Source: a phage | Reading direction: 5' to 3' (one strand) | Length of the DNA stretch: 64,000 nucleotides | Assembly (NCBI GenBank): GCA_012813795.1 | Contig: GCA_012813795.1_4087.1 | Shown here: positions 41,158-50,247 of the stretch, in pieces | Numbering within the stretch: position 1 is the stretch's first letter | How the letters are laid out: every line of letters begins with the position of its first letter | The notes under the pieces: model-generated | What the model saw: only the letters and a program-made list of their open reading frames with translations | Told to the model about the DNA's origin: nothing | Database searches by the model: none | Program-made: the position numbers and the translations under genes

Positions 41158-41246
41158 AATGTTTTACTCCAAACTATTGGCGGGAGAACTATTCCCCCGC
41201 TCTATGTAAAACATTATACACTATAGGATAGTACTGTCAAATAGTT

Positions 41247-41504
41247 TTATGAGATATCCTCGATATAGTCGGCCCATTTCATTTTTTCAGTACTGTCAAT
41301 GGCTACCGGATTATTTGGATCAAACCATTCACCATTACCGCAATACATCCCCACGGCAACGGTTTTATATCCATCCTGGGCCGTATTCCAGGCAAGGCCA
41401 CGATAGATACGGCCTTTAACTGGTTGCAGTACTGGTAACGTTTTATGGTCTTCTACGTAGGCCATAGCTTGAGGATTTACCCGATATTGTGTGAATTGTT
41501 CCAT
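41247..41504 (-). CDS. hypothetical protein (paralog of 41585..41851)
   Basis: 85 aa; shares V.P..G..Y....W.....Y....G.W.DP..P pattern with neighbour. Confidence 0.6.
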   Translation of the reverse strand: MEQFTQYRVNPQAMAYVEDHKTLPVLQPVKGRIYRGLAWNTAQDGYKTVAVGMYCGNGEWFDPNNPVAIDSTEKMKWADYIEDIS

Positions 41505-41584
41505 GATGTTTCCCCTTTTAATATTGGGGGAGTATTCCCCCTATGCAAAACATTATACACTATCAGTTAGTACTGTCAATACTA

Positions 41585-41851
41585 TCAATTAAATTTAGGA
41601 TGTATTTCAATGTAGTCACAATAAGGAAAATATTCAATATAACGCGTAGTGATTGGATGTAACGGATCGGACCATACACCGCTACCCTCATAGCGTGCTA
41701 GTGGGCCTTTTAAGTACTTTTGTTGTTTCCTTGACCAGTATATGGATTGATAGACTACACCAACGGCAGGGACAACGAGCGGGAGCATAGAGTGATCTAA
41801 TACAACGGATTGATAATTTTTATTATAGCGATATGTTGTTTTCTTTTTCAT
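41585..41851 (-). CDS. hypothetical protein (paralog of 41247..41504)
   Basis: 88-aa minus ORF. Confidence 0.6.
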   Translation of the reverse strand: MKKKTTYRYNKNYQSVVLDHSMLPLVVPAVGVVYQSIYWSRKQQKYLKGPLARYEGSGVWSDPLHPITTRYIEYFPYCDYIEIHPKFN

Positions 41852-41903
41852 TGTTAACCTATTATAGAAATTATTAAGGGGATATTATCATCCCCTTTTA
41901 TTG

Positions 41904-42128
41904 TTATACTAGATTATTTAATCCTCTTATGGTTGATGCTTTTTCTTCTTTCTCCCATTGACGGTAATACTTCCATGCTTCGTGATAGGTGGCGATCAGT
42001 TCATCTTTTTGATCCTGATTACATGCCAGTACTGAATCACGGAAAGCGGTGTTATAGATAGAATCGAATGATTTCTTTTCTGCCGCCAGGTTAGATACTT
42101 CCCGAATCAGTTCATCATGATTAGCCAT
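41904..42128 (-). CDS. hypothetical protein
   Basis: Track ORF trimmed to ATG at 42128 (MANHDELIREV...). Confidence 0.6.
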   Translation of the reverse strand: MANHDELIREVSNLAAEKKSFDSIYNTAFRDSVLACNQDQKDELIATYHEAWKYYRQWEKEEKASTIRGLNNLV

Positions 42129-42196
42129 CGTAGTACTCCTTATTAGTGGGGGAGGATATCTCCCCCTATGCAAAACATTATACTTTGTTTTACTTA

Positions 42197-42460
42197 CTAT
42201 GCAAGTACTTTTTTCATATAAACATTAAATTCTACACCGCCGTAACCTTCTACGATGATATGTTTTGCGTTATCACGCTTGCACATAGTGAAACCGTTGT
42301 TGATATGTTCTGCATTTTCCAGGGATACATCACCGATAGCGGCACATACGGCACTTATAACAGTATTCCGCAAAGTACTGGTATCGTTAGCGGTCATAGT
42401 AGTTTGCAGTACTACGTTGTCGTATACGTGTGCATTGATAGTGATTTCAATAGCGTTCAT
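42197..42460 (-). CDS. hypothetical protein
   Basis: Track ORF trimmed to ATG at 42460 (MNAIEITINAH...); discarded MFYIERGKWFPL is translated promoter/hairpin. Confidence 0.6.
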   Translation of the reverse strand: MNAIEITINAHVYDNVVLQTTMTANDTSTLRNTVISAVCAAIGDVSLENAEHINNGFTMCKRDNAKHIIVEGYGGVEFNVYMKKVLA

Positions 42461-42547
42461 GGTGTATCTCCTGGACTTGAGGGGAAACCATTTCCCCCTC
42501 TCGATATAAAACATTATACGTTGATCTAACTACAATGCAAGTACTTT

Positions 42548-42739
42548 TTAAATTTTATTTCCGATATAGTCCGGCCTATTCTTTTCGGTCATACGCTTTG
42601 CTAATGTTTGCATATGGCTTATCGCGTTTAAGGTGTCTTCCTCCAGGGATGAATCAACATAATCAGGATCATTCTTCACCTTACAATGATTATGATAGCG
42701 TAGTACTGCCAGTACTTTTTTAACTTCTTCAACTGTCAT
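42548..42739 (-). CDS. hypothetical protein
   Basis: 63 aa; ATGA start/stop overlap with the upstream gene (translational coupling). Confidence 0.55.
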   Translation of the reverse strand: MTVEEVKKVLAVLRYHNHCKVKNDPDYVDSSLEEDTLNAISHMQTLAKRMTEKNRPDYIGNKI

Positions 42740-43008
42740 AATAAGTATTCCACTTCGTTAGCTTTCAGGTTAGTATCAATCATCAGTGGATTTTTGTAGT
42801 TCACAAAACGATTAGTTTTCTCGATAGCGAATCCCATATAATCCAGCTTACTAACAGTACATTCATTCTTAAAAACTTCTTTCGCTGCATCGATGGCTGA
42901 TTGCATGGATAACCGACCATCTAAATTAATGTTTCCAAATGATCCACCAGCAGAAGTAGGATTACCGTTCATATCTTTAATGATCATAGTAGCGGAGTAG
43001 CTAGACAT
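42736..43008 (-). CDS. hypothetical protein
   Basis: 90-aa minus ORF with promoter module upstream. Confidence 0.6.
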   Translation of the reverse strand: MSSYSATMIIKDMNGNPTSAGGSFGNINLDGRLSMQSAIDAAKEVFKNECTVSKLDYMGFAIEKTNRFVNYKNPLMIDTNLKANEVEYLL

Positions 43009-43061
43009 AATTTTGTTTCCTTTTAGTATCGGGGAGAACTATTCTCCCCTTGATGTAAACT

Positions 43062-43089
43062 ATTATACAGTACTGATATACTTTGTCAA
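43062..43089 (-). promoter_or_regulatory. sigma70-like early promoter (module copy)
   Basis: Minus strand TTGACA-N16-TATAAT; 5'-UTR hairpin GGGGAGAA..TTCTCCCC; module duplicated ~exactly at 43504-43586. Confidence 0.6.
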
Positions 43090-43095
43090 ATACTT

Positions 43096-43503
43096 TTATT
43101 CGCCCATATAGATTAGATTATCATCGCCTACATAGGGATCGCAAACGTTGATTTCTTCGCAGTACTTAGTGAATACATCGTCATAGTGACCGATATCACG
43201 ATCCCAAAAGCCAGTGCCGTGACCTTCGCGAGTAAGAAAGAGATCATGACCTGCATGATTATAAGTATAATCAGGATTATGGTGTTTTTGTACTGTTTCC
43301 ATATCTTCACCATGTACAGCAAGGAAACGTGAACATGCAATCACTGCCGCTTGATGGGCTTGCTCTGATAATTCATAATCTTCCAGGTAATCGCCGTTCT
43401 CATTGTATACAGTACTGAATTGCATAGCTTCAATGTAACCAGCGACCATTGCAGCATGATTTTTATCGTTGGTGATGTTCCGAGCTTGATTAGTAGTAGT
43501 CAT
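43096..43503 (-). CDS. hypothetical protein
   Basis: 135-aa minus ORF. Confidence 0.6.
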   Translation of the reverse strand: MTTTNQARNITNDKNHAAMVAGYIEAMQFSTVYNENGDYLEDYELSEQAHQAAVIACSRFLAVHGEDMETVQKHHNPDYTYNHAGHDLFLTREGHGTGFWDRDIGHYDDVFTKYCEEINVCDPYVGDDNLIYMGE

Positions 43504-43555
43504 GTTTTTATTCCTTTTAGTATCGGGGAGAACTATTCTCCCCTTGATGTAAACT

Positions 43556-43583
43556 ATTATACAGTACTGATATACTTTGTCAA
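43556..43583 (-). promoter_or_regulatory. sigma70-like early promoter (module copy)
   Basis: Minus strand TTGACA-N16-TATAAT; duplicate of the 43062 module. Confidence 0.6.
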
Positions 43584-43586
43584 TAC

Positions 43587-43808
43587 TTAATTACGTTTAA
43601 AATGATATGTGCCTTTATCATCCTGAACGCCCCATACTGATTTACCATCAACACCAGTGAAGCCGGATTGTAATTCAATATGGAAACCATTATTATCAAC
43701 TACAAAAACTTTTTTATTTTCATCCCGATAACATTGATATTCTGAATCAACATTAAAGGCCGCATCATTCAGAAGATTGGAAGCGTAAATGCAAGTCATT
43801 GTAGTCAT
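43587..43808 (-). CDS. hypothetical protein
   Basis: Track ORF trimmed to ATG at 43808 (MTTMTCIYASN...) with AAGGA SD. Confidence 0.6.
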   Translation of the reverse strand: MTTMTCIYASNLLNDAAFNVDSEYQCYRDENKKVFVVDNNGFHIELQSGFTGVDGKSVWGVQDDKGTYHFKRN

Positions 43809-43930
43809 GATTTTATTCCTTATTGCCAGGGAGAACCGTTTCCCCCTCTCGATATAAAACATTATACTTGATTCTAAGTACAATGCAAGTACTTTTTAAA
43901 AATAGTTTTCAGTACTCAATCATTATACAA

Positions 43931-44020
43931 TAGATACACTCCCGCACCCTATGGGTCAGTGAGCTATCTCTCAATGAATATATAATAGCAAAGGGACTGA
44001 CCGGAGTCAATCCCTTTTTT
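43931..44020. repeat. conserved inter-gene boundary element, copy 2
   Basis: Same unit as 40861..40950, directly 3' of the kinase-like gene. Confidence 0.6.
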
Positions 44021-44028
44021 AATCTTTT

Positions 44029-44613
44029 TTATCGTGTTATAGTTACGGCTTTTACGTCGCGTTGTTTATAGTACTGATTCCAAATATTGCGGGTTAAACC
44101 GTAATCAAGTACTTTAATCAGGCCATTGCGATCCTCGCCTATGTTCTGCTTTCTGATATCTCTTATCGTTAGTGTTGATAAGGTATCATCAACGTGTTGT
44201 AGTGCATCAGCGAAATGGTGTTGGCGTTCAATAGTGTTACGTTTAACATTGTACTTTAATTCATTGCAAGCGTTAACGTGCTTTACACTGCCTTTGCTTG
44301 CAGTACTCAAACGATCCATAACAATAAACATATTATCAGGATCGCTTAAATGCATATGCACTTTCGCAAAGAACTGTTTCAACCGAGGACGGTCATAATC
44401 TAAAAAATTCCATACCTTACATTCTGTTTCATTTTGTTCTACGCCAGCATCACAATTCGCGACCTTAATCACTAACCGATCATTTAAAGCGAATACGATA
44501 CGGGATGATCCGGCCCCGATGATTTCAAGTCCAGCCAACCGACAAACTGTAAGGATCTCTTTGTTAGTTTCCATTTCTGCCAGTGCCCGGATGAATTTAG
44601 TATAGTTACGCAT
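44029..44613 (-). CDS. protein kinase-like protein (T7 gp0.7-type Ser/Thr kinase fold suspected)
   Basis: 194 aa; glycine-rich loop IGAGSSRIVF, conserved lysine context LVIKVA, catalytic-loop-like DIRKQNIG, DFG-like VLDYG; AAGGAG SD. Confidence 0.55.
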   Translation of the reverse strand: MRNYTKFIRALAEMETNKEILTVCRLAGLEIIGAGSSRIVFALNDRLVIKVANCDAGVEQNETECKVWNFLDYDRPRLKQFFAKVHMHLSDPDNMFIVMDRLSTASKGSVKHVNACNELKYNVKRNTIERQHHFADALQHVDDTLSTLTIRDIRKQNIGEDRNGLIKVLDYGLTRNIWNQYYKQRDVKAVTITR

Positions 44614-44664
44614 TGCATTTACTCCTTAAGATAGCAGGGAGGTATTCCCTGCCTTGATGTGACT

Positions 44665-44693
44665 ATTATATGTTAGTACTAATTAGATTGCAA
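44665..44693 (-). promoter_or_regulatory. sigma70-like promoter of the kinase-like gene
   Basis: Minus strand TTGCAA-N17-TATAAT. Confidence 0.55.
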
Positions 44694-44910
44694 CAGTTTT
44701 ATTTGCAATTACTGAATGAATTGCGGTTTTACCTGATTTAGTACTGAATACATTAGCACGACCATTTTCAATAGTGATGCGGTATTCACCTTTACTATCA
44801 ATGAGGTTGATAAATTCAGGAGTACTAAACCGAGTTACTTTAAAAGTCAGTACATTGAGCAGGTCCACCAGCGTAGTAGTTTCTTTGATGCGTTCTAAGA
44901 TATTAATCAT
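44683..44910 (-). CDS. hypothetical protein
   Basis: 75-aa minus ORF. Confidence 0.55.
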   Translation of the reverse strand: MINILERIKETTTLVDLLNVLTFKVTRFSTPEFINLIDSKGEYRITIENGRANVFSTKSGKTAIHSVIANKTVAI

Positions 44911-44975
44911 TTTGTTTCTCCAGTTATTCCGTGTTGGTATAGATACATAGTACTAAAACATTTGAGTACTGTCAA

Positions 44976-45194
44976 TTAGATAATTGCATATTTCTTTAAA
45001 GATAATGCGTCTTGTGTTGGCTGATACTCCACGCCGTTACCGTTATCTACTTTAACTAATAAACCTTTGTCAATTAGTTTTTTAATAGTCCGTTGGCCTT
45101 GTTGAAAATTGGTAAAGTGTGAATCATTACGAAAGGTGTAACCATGTTGGATAGCTACATCAATAGTTTTCTTTTCGACTTTAGATAAATTCAT
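44976..45194 (-). CDS. hypothetical protein, possible small DNA-binding protein
   Basis: 72 aa; basic, ...RTIKKLIDKGLLVKV... reminiscent of a winged-helix recognition helix (weak). Confidence 0.45.
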   Translation of the reverse strand: MNLSKVEKKTIDVAIQHGYTFRNDSHFTNFQQGQRTIKKLIDKGLLVKVDNGNGVEYQPTQDALSLKKYAII

Positions 45195-45248
45195 TTTGTT
45201 ACTCCCCGTGTTGGTATGTACATATAGTACTAAAACATTTGAGTACTG

Positions 45249-45503
45249 TCAACGTGATATTAGTTTTATTTTCTTATTATATTGTTGGTGTTCATAGAGG
45301 TTCATCTTTCCGGTATTCTCGATTACTATCCTGTTGTTAGTGTCCACATCGATTACACGCAGTTTTCCGTTGCTTAACTTCCTCGGTAATAGATTACCAT
45401 TAATAAACTCATTAGCGAGCGTGACGGCCTTTGTGATGATTCTCTGAGGGGCTTTATAGTGTACCCGCAAGATATTATCTTTAGATAGTTGTACCTTAAT
45501 CAT
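45249..45503 (-). CDS. hypothetical protein
   Basis: 84-aa minus ORF. Confidence 0.55.
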   Translation of the reverse strand: MIKVQLSKDNILRVHYKAPQRIITKAVTLANEFINGNLLPRKLSNGKLRVIDVDTNNRIVIENTGKMNLYEHQQYNKKIKLISR

Positions 45504-45516
45504 TTTAGTTTATCCT

Positions 45517-45543
45517 ATAAAAAAGGCGGGAACTGATCCCGCC
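45517..45543 (-). terminator. rho-independent terminator
   Basis: GGCGGGA-actga-TCCCGCC hairpin followed on the minus strand by UUUUUUAU; downstream of 45566..45970. Confidence 0.65.
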
Positions 45544-45565
45544 GTGTTGTTAGTACTGCAAGTTA

Positions 45566-45970
45566 TTAGATAACCTGGCGGCGTTTACTGAATACTGTTA
45601 CACGATTACCCTTACGATCATGTCGGATCTCTTTCTGGTTGCGAACCAGTTCACTTGGACGCTTGAGGTTTGCCAGGTGATCCGCGTGAGTCCAAGCGGT
45701 ATGGTTTGCCTGTACTTTGATATCAGAACCAGCGATAAACTCATCTTGTGCGTCAAGTATTGCCGCCAGCATATCCGCTCGTTTTAGTTCTGCTGCTGTC
45801 AGTACTGGTTCAGGTGAATTCACAATATCAGAGATTTCTTTGAACTGTACGGCCCAGCGTTGGCCTTTCGGTGCTGTCGTTCCCATGTCTTTAAATGCTG
45901 CTCCTTCCTCGCGTGCAACAATACGGGCAGCTTCACGGGTAGCGTAGAATTTAGTAATCATGGTATACAT
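45566..45970 (-). CDS. hypothetical protein (paralog of 56881..57147)
   Basis: 134 aa; shares FxTREqAR..A...GA.FKDMG and IKHDRKGNRVTV with 56881..57147. Confidence 0.6.
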   Translation of the reverse strand: MYTMITKFYATREAARIVAREEGAAFKDMGTTAPKGQRWAVQFKEISDIVNSPEPVLTAAELKRADMLAAILDAQDEFIAGSDIKVQANHTAWTHADHLANLKRPSELVRNQKEIRHDRKGNRVTVFSKRRQVI

Positions 45971-46056
45971 CCTATTAGTTAAGTTAGTACTACAAGTTAG
46001 AGTCTATTATAAAGTACTATCTGGGCAATGTCAAATAGTACTTTAAATGGATTCTA

Positions 46057-46380
46057 TTACATGTCTTTCTTACGTTTTACATCGTTGTAGCGAACTGTTA
46101 TTTCTTTGTTGATCTCTTTTTCTATTTGATGAATAACTTTTTCTTTCGGGTTGAAACCTATAACGGTTTCTTTAATGATCTCCAAGCCTGTGTATTCGCC
46201 TTGTGTGCCGTAACCGTAAGTAAAGGTTTCATGTCCTAAATCCTCCCAGCGATCACCAATCAAAGCAGACACGTAGCAAGAGTGGTAAGTATTGCCGTGT
46301 GAATCAGTCCACCGATTAACATTAATGTCAAAGGAAGTAATAATTTTCAGTTCTACTTTCTGGGTGAGGATCATAGCCAT
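46057..46380 (-). CDS. hypothetical protein (paralog of 51661..51984)
   Basis: Track ORF trimmed to internal Met (MAMILTQKVEL); shares RWTDSxGNTYHSC.VS...FTYGY...NVKRKKD with 51661..51984. Confidence 0.6.
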   Translation of the reverse strand: MAMILTQKVELKIITSFDINVNRWTDSHGNTYHSCYVSALIGDRWEDLGHETFTYGYGTQGEYTGLEIIKETVIGFNPKEKVIHQIEKEINKEITVRYNDVKRKKDM

Positions 46381-46468
46381 TTTTATTTCTCTCTCTTTGT
46401 TAGGAGGGGAACCGTTTCCCCTCACTTGATGTAAACTATTATACAGTACTAAGATACTTTGTCAATAC

Positions 46469-46651
46469 TTATTTTTTGGAAAGTTTACGCATTAATTCTA
46501 CGCTTTCTTGTGAACGTTTTGCTACCTGGCAATCTGCATGGGCAGTAAACATTTTTGTATAGTCTGACGCTTTGCCACCGAACCGAGCGGCACGTTCACG
46601 GGCACTTGGAACTAATACGATTTCTTTCTTACAGATAGTGCACTTAGCCAT
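46469..46651 (-). CDS. small Cys/His-containing protein
   Basis: Track ORF trimmed to MAKCTICKKEIV...; CxxC...HxxC spacing suggests possible Zn binding; the upstream ~90-bp promoter module is identical to that of 46057..46380. Confidence 0.5.
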   Translation of the reverse strand: MAKCTICKKEIVLVPSARERAARFGGKASDYTKMFTAHADCQVAKRSQESVELMRKLSKK

Positions 46652-46739
46652 TTTTATTTCTCTCTCTTTGTTAGGAGGGGAACCGTTTCCCCTCACTTGA
46701 TGTAAACTATTATACAGTACTAAGATACTTTGTCAATAC

Positions 46740-47015
46740 TTAAGTATTGTAAATGTCGTGAATAGTGATAAAGTTTTTACGACCGTAAACCTGTAAATCA
46801 GTATCAATGTAGTGCTTATCAAGTACATCCTCGACGCTTAACGCGGTGTCGTGAATATCTTCGTAGAATTGAGGATCTACAATCTTGCTTAAGTCATCCG
46901 GCGTTAACTTATCGTTAAGCCATTGAACCGCCTGGATATCTGCATCACGTTTCCAGTCTTGCAGGTTAGTAGTAAGTACTTGTTCGATTTCGTTAGCTGT
47001 CAGTAGAATCCGCAT
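46740..47015 (-). CDS. hypothetical protein
   Basis: 91-aa minus ORF. Confidence 0.6.
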   Translation of the reverse strand: MRILLTANEIEQVLTTNLQDWKRDADIQAVQWLNDKLTPDDLSKIVDPQFYEDIHDTALSVEDVLDKHYIDTDLQVYGRKNFITIHDIYNT

Positions 47016-47244
47016 TTTATGTTTCCTTCTCAGTGGTTGATGTAAGTATTATACTCGTTTACTTTCTATTGTCAAACTATTTTATCAGGGGAGTTTTTCG
47101 TGTGCCTTACTCCTGGGCTACTTAACGGGGTTACTTGTTTCATTCCCCGTCCTGATGTAAAACATTATACTTGATTCTAAGTACAATGCAAGTACTTTTT
47201 TATAATAGTTTTCAGTACTAGATAATACGTCCACCAGCATATAA

Positions 47245-47335
47245 TAGATACATTTATGCACCCTGTGGGCTGATTTGTTTCTATGCGTATATAATAGCAA
47301 AGGGACTGACCGGAGTCAATCCCTTTTTCAATTAT
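47245..47335. repeat. conserved inter-gene boundary element, copy 3
   Basis: Same unit as 40861..40950. Confidence 0.6.
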
Positions 47336-47337
47336 TT

Positions 47338-47487
47338 TTAAACTTCTTTTGGGTTGCGATATGTGATAGCGTTAGGGTACATTTTCTTTAAGTTATTCCA
47401 TGCCTGGTTAAGACTATAACCGCTGGATCTTACTAGTTGGTGCATACCTTGCCCCAAAAATGTAACTTCGAATAAGTATTCTTTCAT
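47338..47487 (-). CDS. small protein (49 aa), not in ORF track
   Basis: Hand-translated MKEYLFEVTFLGQGMHQLVRSSGYSLNQAWNNLKKMYPNAITYRNPKEV; GAGGTG SD; ATGA overlap with the upstream gene. Confidence 0.45.
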   Translation of the reverse strand: MKEYLFEVTFLGQGMHQLVRSSGYSLNQAWNNLKKMYPNAITYRNPKEV

Positions 47488-47657
47488 GCTTGCACCTCGC
47501 GATCTGCTTTGCCTTTACGCCAGGCCGTTGCTAATTGTTCGCGTTGCCATACATCCAGCGATACGTAAAGTTTTGCGGTATCACCTTTCGGATATTCGCC
47601 AGTAGTACCCATCCGATAAAACAGATCTTTCAGTACTGTCAATTCTACCTGGATCAT
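47484..47657 (-). CDS. small protein (57 aa), not in ORF track
   Basis: Hand-translated MIQVELTVLKDLFYRMGTTGEYPKGDTAKLYVSLDVWQREQLATAWRKGKADREVQA; AAGGA SD; promoter module upstream. Confidence 0.45.
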   Translation of the reverse strand: MIQVELTVLKDLFYRMGTTGEYPKGDTAKLYVSLDVWQREQLATAWRKGKADREVQA

Positions 47658-47744
47658 GTTACTTTCCTTTTTGTTAGGAGGGGAACTATTCCCCTCTCTA
47701 TGTAAAACATTATACTTGATTCTAAGTACTACACAAGTACTTTT

Positions 47745-47957
47745 TTAATCTTTCAGCCAATGATCTTGGATGAATTTTTCACCGAAGCCTTGCTGCATGG
47801 ATTGTAACAGGCGTTCACGGTGAGCGGCGGCAAATTGCTCAGTACTATGCGTTACACCTGGTTGATATCTGGATTCACCATTGGGGGCGATGTATTGTAC
47901 ATCCCACGGTTTAGCGTTAGTATCAGACCATTTACGAACGATTAGTTGACCTTGCAT
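47745..47957 (-). CDS. hypothetical protein
   Basis: Track ORF trimmed to internal Met (MQGQLIVRKWSD). Confidence 0.55.
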   Translation of the reverse strand: MQGQLIVRKWSDTNAKPWDVQYIAPNGESRYQPGVTHSTEQFAAAHRERLLQSMQQGFGEKFIQDHWLKD

Positions 47958-48043
47958 TTTTCTTTCCTCAGTACTGGGGAGAATCATTTCTCCCCTTCAT
48001 GTAACTTATTATACAGTACTATAATCTATTGTCCAGTACTTTT

Positions 48044-48232
48044 TTAAAGTTTATGAATTAATTCTTTATCTAAACGATAGCGTACATTATTAATTGTAAC
48101 AGCATTGTTTTTAATGCTACGCTGTACAGGTCCACCAGCAATAACAAACGTTGCCTTATTACCCCGAACAATGATAGCACTTCCTGGATTGCCGTATTCA
48201 TCTTGTACTAAAATACTTGATAATTGTTCCAT
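48044..48232 (-). CDS. hypothetical protein
   Basis: 62-aa minus ORF with promoter module (TTGACA-N16-TATAAT) upstream. Confidence 0.55.
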   Translation of the reverse strand: MEQLSSILVQDEYGNPGSAIIVRGNKATFVIAGGPVQRSIKNNAVTINNVRYRLDKELIHKL

Positions 48233-48393
48233 TTTGTTTTCCTCAGTACTGGGAAGGGTTATCCTCCCCTTGATATAAAATATTATACACTATCTATCAG
48301 TACTGTCAATACTTTTTAGTACTTATTTAAACGCTCTCAAACGCATTCTAACGAGCTAATCTATTTTGTAGTACTATCGGATAGGTATATACT

Positions 48394-48422
48394 AAAAAGC
48401 CCACCAGCGTTAACCAGTGGGC
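48394..48422 (-). terminator. rho-independent terminator
   Basis: GCCCAC..GTGGGC hairpin followed on the minus strand by UUUUUAGU. Confidence 0.55.
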
Positions 48423-48428
48423 TATAAT

Positions 48429-48572
48429 CTTACATCTTGCGGATAATCTTAACAGTATCTTTCACCGATTTACCGTCTTGCTGGCATTGTTCGATCATTG
48501 CGTATTGTTCTGTGGTCAGATCTTCGCCAGTTTTTTCCAGTACTGCTTCGATGAATGAATCCAGTGCGATCA
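48429..48572 (-). CDS. small protein (47 aa), not in ORF track
   Basis: Hand-translated MIALDSFIEAVLEKTGEDLTTEQYAMIEQCQQDGKSVKDTVKIIRKM; promoter TTGACT-N16-TATAAT upstream, terminator downstream. Confidence 0.45.
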
Positions 48573-48663
48573 TTTTCTTTCTCTCTTAGGTTAAGTTAAC
48601 TACTGTTTATAAAACTTATTATACAGTACTATCGTATAGAGTCAATAGTACTGGTAATATATT

Positions 48664-48843
48664 TTAGCGGTAGTCGTCGTATGCTTTATTCAACTGGCGA
48701 ATGTAACTTTCAAAGGCTTCGTCTACCGTTTCATACTCCAGAACATAATCACCATAGGAAACTACATACATACCTTTTTGATCTTCAAACGTCATGATGA
48801 TAGAATCCAGACCAACGATTTCAGTTTTTGCGATGATAGCCAT
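48664..48843 (-). CDS. hypothetical protein
   Basis: Track ORF trimmed to MAIIAKTEIVG...; extension translates a promoter module repeated four times in the window. Confidence 0.55.
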   Translation of the reverse strand: MAIIAKTEIVGLDSIIMTFEDQKGMYVVSYGDYVLEYETVDEAFESYIRQLNKAYDDYR

Positions 48844-48925
48844 TTTTAATTCCTTAGTAGTGTAGTTGATAAAATCTATTATGCCAGTACTATCAATCTT
48901 TGTCAATAGTACTGTGATAATATTT

Positions 48926-49138
48926 TTAGTTAATGATAGTCAGTGTAAAATTGTAATCCCCTGCCTGGTATAGTATTTTGTCGCCGAACGTACCAACACG
49001 TTTCATATTGCAATAGATACCCATAACATTTTTTACATCTTTGATATTCCGAACGCCTGTGATATCCTTGTTGAAATTTTCATGATCAGAAAATAAAACT
49101 TGTTTTGCATTTTTCAGTACAGTGCAGATATTAGCCAT
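48926..49138 (-). CDS. hypothetical protein
   Basis: Track ORF trimmed to internal Met (MANICTVLKNAKQ). Confidence 0.55.
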   Translation of the reverse strand: MANICTVLKNAKQVLFSDHENFNKDITGVRNIKDVKNVMGIYCNMKRVGTFGDKILYQAGDYNFTLTIIN

Positions 49139-49217
49139 TTTGTTTTCCTTAGTTGTCTTGATAAAATCTATTATGCCAGTACTATCAATCATTGTCAATA
49201 GTACTGTGATAATAATT

Positions 49218-50165: not shown

Positions 50166-50247
50166 TTTGATTCTCCTTGTATCAGGGGAGAACCATTTCC
50201 CCCCTCTATGTAAAACATTATACAGTACTAAAAACTAATTGCAAGTA

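Follow-up and report, generated by a model that had tools for sequence, protein, structure and literature searches.

The 64,000-nt stretch of phage DNA analysed here (the window) carries on its minus strand, at 44029..44613, an ORF encoding a 194-aa protein, and the question raised by this locus is whether the product has a protein kinase fold at all and, if so, whether it belongs to the family of the phage T7 kinase gp0.7 (T7K). The initial annotation had proposed a small and divergent protein-kinase-like enzyme of the T7 gp0.7 type, a candidate for early host takeover. Megablast and tblastn searches gave 87-95% nucleotide identity between the window and the Asteriusvirus group of ~350-kb Escherichia jumbo phages (121Q, PBECO4, G17, phAPEC6, Sharanji and fEgEco12), and judged from this sequence comparison the source genome is a ~350-kb Asteriusvirus of the 121Q/PBECO4/G17 group and not a T7-like phage. 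Farther orthologues of the 194-aa protein, with 35-39% amino-acid identity, are present in RaK2/K64-1-like Klebsiella, Munch-like Salmonella, Erwinia and Xanthomonas jumbo phages. Against the orthologues of ph0011, Sharanji (gp063, WNN14351.1) and vB_Ec-M-J, to which the gene is ~89% identical at the nucleotide level, dN/dS is 0.085-0.096 at a dS of ~0.5, showing that the gene is real and under purifying selection.

Most of the orthologues are annotated as "hypothetical protein", and a minority of the records read "protein kinase", "protein kinase domain-containing protein" or "serine/threonine-protein kinase". The Sharanji genome paper gives gp063 one sentence, "another protein kinase ... which function is unknown" (PMC11895373), and protein kinases are absent from the discussion in a comparative-genomics review of jumbo phages (PMC7824862). 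The kinase-like nature of the protein is accordingly already known from a few GenBank/UniProt annotations and one genome-paper sentence. What is new is the firm evidence for the fold and the active site, the minimal architecture, the signature motifs and the size of the family, the early context in the terminal repeat, the tandem-domain and tape-measure relatives, and the distinction from the T7K family; readers of a recent Nature paper might otherwise take T7K and the family described here (PHROG 4301) for one.

The four motifs on which the kinase assignment was originally based (Gly-rich loop, VIKV, DIRKQNIG and VLDYG) are all present, and in the canonical kinase order. Together with the helix-C region they are encoded as follows.

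44029..44613, minus strand: the 194-aa ORF, with ATG at 44613-44611 and stop codon at 44031-44029
44500..44517, minus strand: codons of the Gly-rich loop variant G33-A-G35-S36-S37-R38, within IIGAGSSRIV (aa 31-40)
44464..44466, minus strand: codon of K50, the 'VAIK'-type ATP-anchoring lysine, in V-I-K-V (aa 48-51)
44422..44436, minus strand: codons of Q60-N61-E62-T63-E64, where E64 is the helix-C glutamate partnering K50
44137..44160, minus strand: codons of the catalytic loop D152-I-R-K-Q-N157-I-G159 (aa 152-159)
44098..44106, minus strand: codons of D170-Y171-G172 (aa 170-172), the DFG-equivalent Mg-binding motif, within VLDYG (aa 168-172)

When the 194-aa sequence was searched on its own, Pkinase and PK_Tyr_Ser-Thr were the sole near-threshold Pfam matches (E=0.0025), with a score of ~17.6 bits that lies below the gathering scores of 31.7 and 23.1; NCBIfam gave no match at E<=10, and PADLOC gave weak and uninformative matches (E ~7e-4) to the kinase component of PD-T4-6. 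A single-sequence phmmer search of the PDB had a best E-value of 0.017, and the best 60 of its 74 matches were all protein kinases aligned in register. A family profile made from a 93-sequence alignment (A3) matched MKK4 at E=8.9e-6 and gave 114 PDB matches at E<=0.01, the 60 listed again being protein kinases without exception. The same profile was aligned by hhalign to human PKA C-alpha with 91.4% probability and E=9e-7, in register from the Gly-rich loop to ~10 residues beyond DFG; the PKA sequence served as a control only.

The structural evidence points in the same direction. An AlphaFold2 model based on the 93-sequence alignment reached a pLDDT of 94.2 and a pTM of 0.89, and supersedes a model from a 10-sequence alignment (pLDDT 62, below 50 in the C-terminal half) as well as the Foldseek comparison of that first model, which was driven by the N-lobe and gave low TM-scores. 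The PKL/Hanks core features are present, in that the fold is bilobal, with five strands and helix C in the N-lobe and with helix E, the catalytic loop and the Mg-binding loop in the core of the C-lobe. In protein coordinates the model is built up in this way.

aa 4-26: N-terminal two-helix extension (helices 4-12 and 17-26)
aa 30-34, 38-42 and 47-52: N-lobe strands carrying the Gly-rich loop and K50
aa 55-73: helix C, carrying E64
aa 96-100: hinge strand
aa 107-120 and 129-145: D- and E-like helices
aa 150-159: catalytic loop
aa 158-160 and 166-168: short strands
aa 175-189: single C-terminal helix

The values in the fold-comparison table were 9.8 for SAICAR synthetase (a related ATP-binding fold), 8.9 for STK17A, 8.7 for APH(2''), 8.5 for both PknB and BRAF, 8.0 for Rio2, and 7.1-7.3 for the RNA kinases Ark1 and TkArkI. 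The kinase fold thus finds its support in profile searches, in hhalign and in the AlphaFold2 model. A chance resemblance, or a non-coding ORF whose translation has no kinase fold, might be argued from the single-sequence Pfam score (17.6 vs 31.7 bits) and from the poor C-terminal half of the first, shallow-alignment model, but it is contradicted by the profile, structure, conservation and selection results alike. Since Pfam, PDB, hhalign and conservation all agree, the resemblance in the four motifs goes beyond chance, and we consider this explanation to have virtually no probability.

The model ends early. Only 24 residues follow D170, with nothing beyond the C-terminal helix, and both the model and the kinase alignments show that the activation segment, the P+1/APE region and helices F to I are absent from the 194-aa protein; the alignments of the family profile to MKK4 and PKA also end at approximately DFG+10. 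Among the 93 relatives a median of 26 residues (range 5-70) comes after the DFG-Asp, at a median protein length of 206 aa, and the short C-terminus is therefore a property of the family rather than the truncation of one ORF.

What remains of the kinase domain is highly conserved, and the motif residues are kept across the 93 homologues down to ~20% identity. In the Gly-rich loop R38 is invariant (93 of 93), and the counts for the other columns are 79 for G33, 84 for G35, 87 for S36 and 75 for S37. K50 is found in 93/93 sequences, on a strand that hhalign aligns with A-M-K-I-L of PKA (K72). G57 (92/93) precedes a near-invariant pair that is specific for the family, Q60-N61 (93/93 and 90/93), and E64 is conserved in 92/93. 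The catalytic loop, which aligns with R-D-L-K-P-E-N of PKA and MKK4, contains the HRD-type catalytic aspartate D152 (91/93) and G159 (92/93). DIRKQNIG was correctly recognized as catalytic-loop-like in the protein at hand, although the equivalent of the metal-binding asparagine, N157, is not a general feature, as this position is occupied by N in 38, S in 32, H in 15 and Q in 7 of the 93 sequences. D170 and G172 are both invariant (93/93), with Y (67) or F (20) between them. The residue preceding the catalytic Asp is mostly Gly, which makes the family one of non-RD kinases. The signature can be written as G-x-G-S-S-R ... K ... G-x-x-Q-N-x-x-E ... D-x-x-x-x-[NSHQ]-x-G ... D-[YF]-G.

This pattern bears directly on whether the protein could be a pseudokinase or a nucleotide-binding adaptor, which would bind ATP or host proteins and act by sequestration or allostery without phosphotransfer. 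Pseudokinases typically lack at least one of the Lys, the Glu, the catalytic Asp and the DFG Asp. Here the residues needed only for catalysis, K50, E64, D152 and D170, are retained in 91-93 of 93 sequences at ~20% pairwise identity, and in all copies of the tandem-domain relatives described below. With all phosphotransfer residues under such strong constraint we regard a pseudokinase as improbable.

Which type of kinase, then, does the family represent? Hanks-type kinases (PF00069 and PF07714; PKA, MKK4/6/7, STK24, PknB/Stk1) share the fold of the family, their ATP-binding and catalytic residues are identical and arranged in the same order (Gly-rich loop, beta-3 Lys, helix-C Glu, catalytic Asp and D-[YF]-G), and they are the only class with significant sequence-profile similarity to the family. 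The family differs from them in the loop G-x-G-S-S-R with its invariant Arg, in the Q-N pair ahead of the helix-C Glu, in being non-RD with a variable +5 Asn, and in the lack of an activation segment, of the APE motif and of helices F to I. Among atypical kinases of comparably small size are Rio1/Rio2, Bud32/PRPK and archaeal ArkI/Ark1; no significant sequence relationship to these was detected, and their catalytic-loop and P-loop signatures differ. The type III effector kinases OspG and NleH are of similar size and equally truncated, and they phosphorylate proteins. The small atypical kinases as a group have ribosome or tRNA targets or depend on partner proteins.

The E. coli protein YrbL (PF10707, YrbL-PhoP_reg) is another kinase-like protein of similar size (~210 aa), and PF10707 is the only curated Pfam model besides Pkinase that distant members approach (2/50, best E=1e-5). 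Its G-x-G-x-x-R loop aligns with that of the family, and by eye its catalytic Asp appears to be lacking (S-L-K-P-Q-N). As a parent family it was rejected, as hhalign gave 0.4% and the 194-aa protein has no PF10707 match.

We lean, with a little more than even confidence, towards a constitutively active, minimal, early Ser/Thr(/Tyr) kinase of the Hanks type with host and/or phage proteins as targets. The acceptor might also be something other than a protein, so that the enzyme would be an active kinase-fold phosphotransferase for RNA or tRNA (cf. archaeal ArkI), for a nucleotide or signalling molecule, for an antibiotic-like molecule, or for a sugar or lipid headgroup. Such a reading would predict the missing peptide-binding C-lobe. 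Nevertheless, only protein kinases were matched at significant E-values by the sequence profiles, the APH, choline-kinase, Rio and Kdo families were absent among the matches listed, and the PKA alignment was both significant and in register. Furthermore, T7K and OspG/NleH do phosphorylate proteins in spite of being equally truncated, and no conserved neighbour points to a metabolic pathway; in the gene neighbourhoods of distant homologues no conserved partner was found. We therefore judge a non-protein acceptor to be unlikely and retain a protein kinase as the preferred reading.

The initial annotation had further placed the protein in the T7 gp0.7 type, and this part of it has to be abandoned. 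Orthology or close relationship to T7K, with a hyperpromiscuous mechanism acquired by descent, could be suspected because both are small early phage kinases. The 194-aa protein and the T7K group alike end ~20 residues past the DFG-equivalent (20 after DP in the jumbo-phage T7K homologue gp144), so that neither has activation-loop gating. In addition, T7K can be aligned by eye to the N-lobe motifs (G-x-G..., VIKV), and T7-like phage kinases are among the structural neighbours of the model in a viral library (E 1e-5 to 1e-6, TM ~0.5). However, the 194-aa protein matches PHROG 4301 ("unknown function") over residues 5-187 at E=4.8e-40, as do 93/93 of the aligned relatives, while the T7K PHROGs 2828, 15752 and 18305 were matched neither by the protein at E<=1 nor by any of the 93 relatives at E<=1e-3. 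As a positive control, Sharanji gp144 matched PHROG 15752 at E=1e-97. By hhalign the family profile gave 1.2% against T7K and likewise 1.2% against gp144; because hhalign has generally low power against single-sequence templates, the PKA control was added before this negative result was trusted, and the identical procedure gave the 91.4% reported above.

The motifs differ as well. T7K homologues are defined by a DP(V) motif in place of DFG, and with PHROG 2828 as search query such homologues have been reported from the jumbo phages G17 and Munch, in which a DP(V)-type motif is present and the shut-off domain has disappeared (PMC13645617). The motif reads DPV at residue 213 in the kinase domain of T7K and DPL in gp144 ("ITDPLS"), and D-Y-G in the 194-aa protein. 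The shut-off (SO)/DNA-binding C-terminal domain of the Autographiviridae T7K members is absent from the single-domain 194-aa protein. Finally, the same genomes carry a separate true T7K homologue: Sharanji gp144, which represents the gene type known from G17 and Munch, is a 224-aa protein with a BLASTP match to T7K at E=4e-8, encoded at 66182-66856 of OR545507.1 (L005:4183-4857, minus strand), ~46 kb from gp063. The coexistence of the two shows that Asteriusvirus has two unrelated minimal kinases, and we find membership of the T7K family very improbable. T7K, a promiscuous kinase that disarms host defences (PMC13645617), is a reasonable functional analogy for the 194-aa protein, and the best one, without being a homologue. 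Within the 64-kb window neither a T7K-like gene nor a paralogue of the mini-kinase was found. In OR545507.1 the T7K homologue gp144 is annotated as 'hypothetical protein'.

The description of the protein as small, divergent, kinase-like and a candidate for early host takeover has thus stood up well, with support from profile, structure and conservation, and the genomic context supports it too. The control elements around the gene, predicted from the sequence, are these.

44665..44693, minus strand: sigma-70-like promoter directly upstream of the ORF (TTGCAA, 17 nt, TATAAT; 10/12 in the consensus scan), the predicted promoter of the 194-aa gene
44634..44652, minus strand: 5'-UTR hairpin, GCAGGGA-AUACC-UCCCUGC in the transcript, between the -10 box and the Shine-Dalgarno sequence
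44622-44627, minus strand: Shine-Dalgarno sequence AAGGAG
43990..44017, minus strand: 12-bp hairpin beginning 12 nt past the stop codon

Throughout the window, short genes follow one another in a single direction. On its minus strand 33 promoter-like sites reach >=11/12 matches, versus 3 on the plus strand and ~5 (4.9) expected in total, and of 11 perfect 12/12 promoters on the minus strand (TTGACA-N16/17-TATAAT) nine lie at 41-49 kb, flanking the 194-aa gene on both sides. The array of near-consensus promoters is especially dense at 41213-49198 of the minus strand, with roughly one promoter per short gene. The vB_Ec-M-J orthologue lies inside an annotated direct terminal repeat (1-21,525), and that of fEgEco12 at ~16-17 kb, within a terminal repeat of 20,993 bp that has been confirmed by restriction mapping (PMC13070987). 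In the related phage CBB, RpoD-like promoters are clustered ahead of short ORFs and into the terminal repeat, which was interpreted as an early host-takeover region (PMC5259590). Because of the near-consensus sigma-70 promoters and the position of the orthologues in a ~21-kb direct terminal repeat, the 194-aa gene is probably an immediate-early gene read by the host RNA polymerase.

The RNA elements are less easily interpreted. The 5'-UTR hairpin is of modest stability (-14 kcal/mol, z=-2.0). Hairpins of the GGGGAAACGGTTCTCCC type are found at 15 other sites on the minus strand between 40300 and 56100 of the window, where 0.03 would be expected, for example at these positions.

43829-43845, minus strand: GGGGAAACGGTTCTCCC-type hairpin
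46405-46421, minus strand: GGGGAAACGGTTCTCCC-type hairpin
46676-46692, minus strand: GGGGAAACGGTTCTCCC-type hairpin
50186-50202, minus strand: GGGGAAACGGTTCTCCC-type hairpin

In many short genes they lie downstream of the -10 box and ahead of the ribosome-binding site. Hairpins of this type could serve RNA stability, translation control or the binding of a protein. The hairpin past the stop codon is considerably more stable (-19.5 kcal/mol, z=-5.1, with 0/200 shuffles equally stable) and shares bases with the -35 of the promoter-like site that follows, 44010..43982. It is listed by the terminator scan, has no U-tract after it on the minus strand, and is possibly a terminator or an RNA-stability element.

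The family is far larger than the orthologues in jumbo phages. A word-indexed search returned 55 homologous proteins, and when 1.84 billion cluster representatives were searched exhaustively with HMMER, 1,752 matched at E<=1e-3 and 131 at E<=1e-10, which puts the PHROG 4301 family at no fewer than 1,752 clusters at 50% identity. Its members are mostly from phages and metagenomes, and there is no curated Pfam or NCBIfam model for it. Many relatives are single polypeptides with two, three or four complete copies of the domain, as in the following examples.

P0062: 923 aa, 4 copies, one uninterrupted ORF at L010:204-2975
P0073: 4 copies
P0066, P0067 and P0068: 3 copies each

Every copy in these tandem-domain relatives keeps R38, K50, E64, D152, G159, D170 and G172, and we know of no phage 'poly-kinase' architecture described so far. 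In the 3,248-aa tape-measure protein P0137 (Pfam PhageMin_Tail at 125-315) two copies of the kinase domain are present at 665-831 and 854-1038, a fusion which suggests that the kinases enter the host by injection along with the DNA. The distant member P0031 (JGI contig Ga0212215_10000005, locus L009, 6001-6684) has its gene in a T4-like head module, flanked by the genes for the Gp23 major capsid protein and a gp13-like neck protein, and could be packaged into the virion; another distant homologue adjoins rIIA/rIIB-like genes. The longer relatives have no consistent fusion partner, with DUF5661 in one protein and sub-threshold NHL and Mga matches. From the tandem, tape-measure and head-module relatives, taken together with the terminal-repeat location, we infer a demand for the kinase in the cell right at the onset of infection.

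For the 194-aa protein itself we envisage the following course of events. The host sigma-70 RNA polymerase would transcribe the gene from its own promoter once the phage DNA end has entered the cell, which the position of the orthologues in the ~21-kb direct terminal repeat makes probable. The product would be a catalytically competent minimal Hanks-type kinase consisting of a complete ATP-binding N-lobe, helices D and E, the catalytic loop, D-Y-G and one closing helix. Having no activation loop as a gate it would probably be constitutively active, and its targets could be Ser/Thr, possibly Tyr, in proteins of the host and/or the phage, selected with little specificity. Its role would then be in host takeover or counter-defence, resembling the T7 kinase in action and without homology to it.

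Phage protein kinases have recently shifted from curiosities to broad counter-defence weapons, with T7K phosphorylating most of the host proteome and disarming retrons and DarTG (PMC13645617). Giant coliphages carry a second early putative kinase, unrelated to T7K, and the tandem-domain and tape-measure relatives suggest that such kinases may be injected effectors. A more far-reaching interpretation, which we offer as tentative and on balance doubtful, is that phages possess in PHROG 4301 a second and independent family of 'front-line' kinases that is very widespread. Its members would be constitutively active minimal Hanks-type kinases that broadly phosphorylate host proteins so as to disable defence systems, and in Asteriusvirus the kinase would be active beside the T7K homologue and on a different range of substrates. 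Delivery at the first moment of infection would then take one of two routes, either through immediate-early genes in terminal repeats or by physical injection, in the form of tape-measure fusions, head-module proteins or tandem polypeptides of two to four active kinase domains. A natural minimal kinase of ~190 aa, reduced to catalysis only, could moreover reveal the least fold that supports activity and the basis of promiscuity. Should the enzyme turn out to have narrow specificity or a non-protein acceptor, the result would be a useful annotation of ordinary interest.

Two further observations concern gene copies in these phages. Pectobacterium phage CBB has two separate mini-kinase paralogues, A0A1L2CVI5 and A0A1L2CVG3 (194 and 168 aa), both among the matches in the viral structure library. 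In the window, the minus strand at 55-31417 contains ~40 back-to-back ORFs of 150-280 aa, many of them overlapping by a few bases, which look like expanded paralogous gene families.
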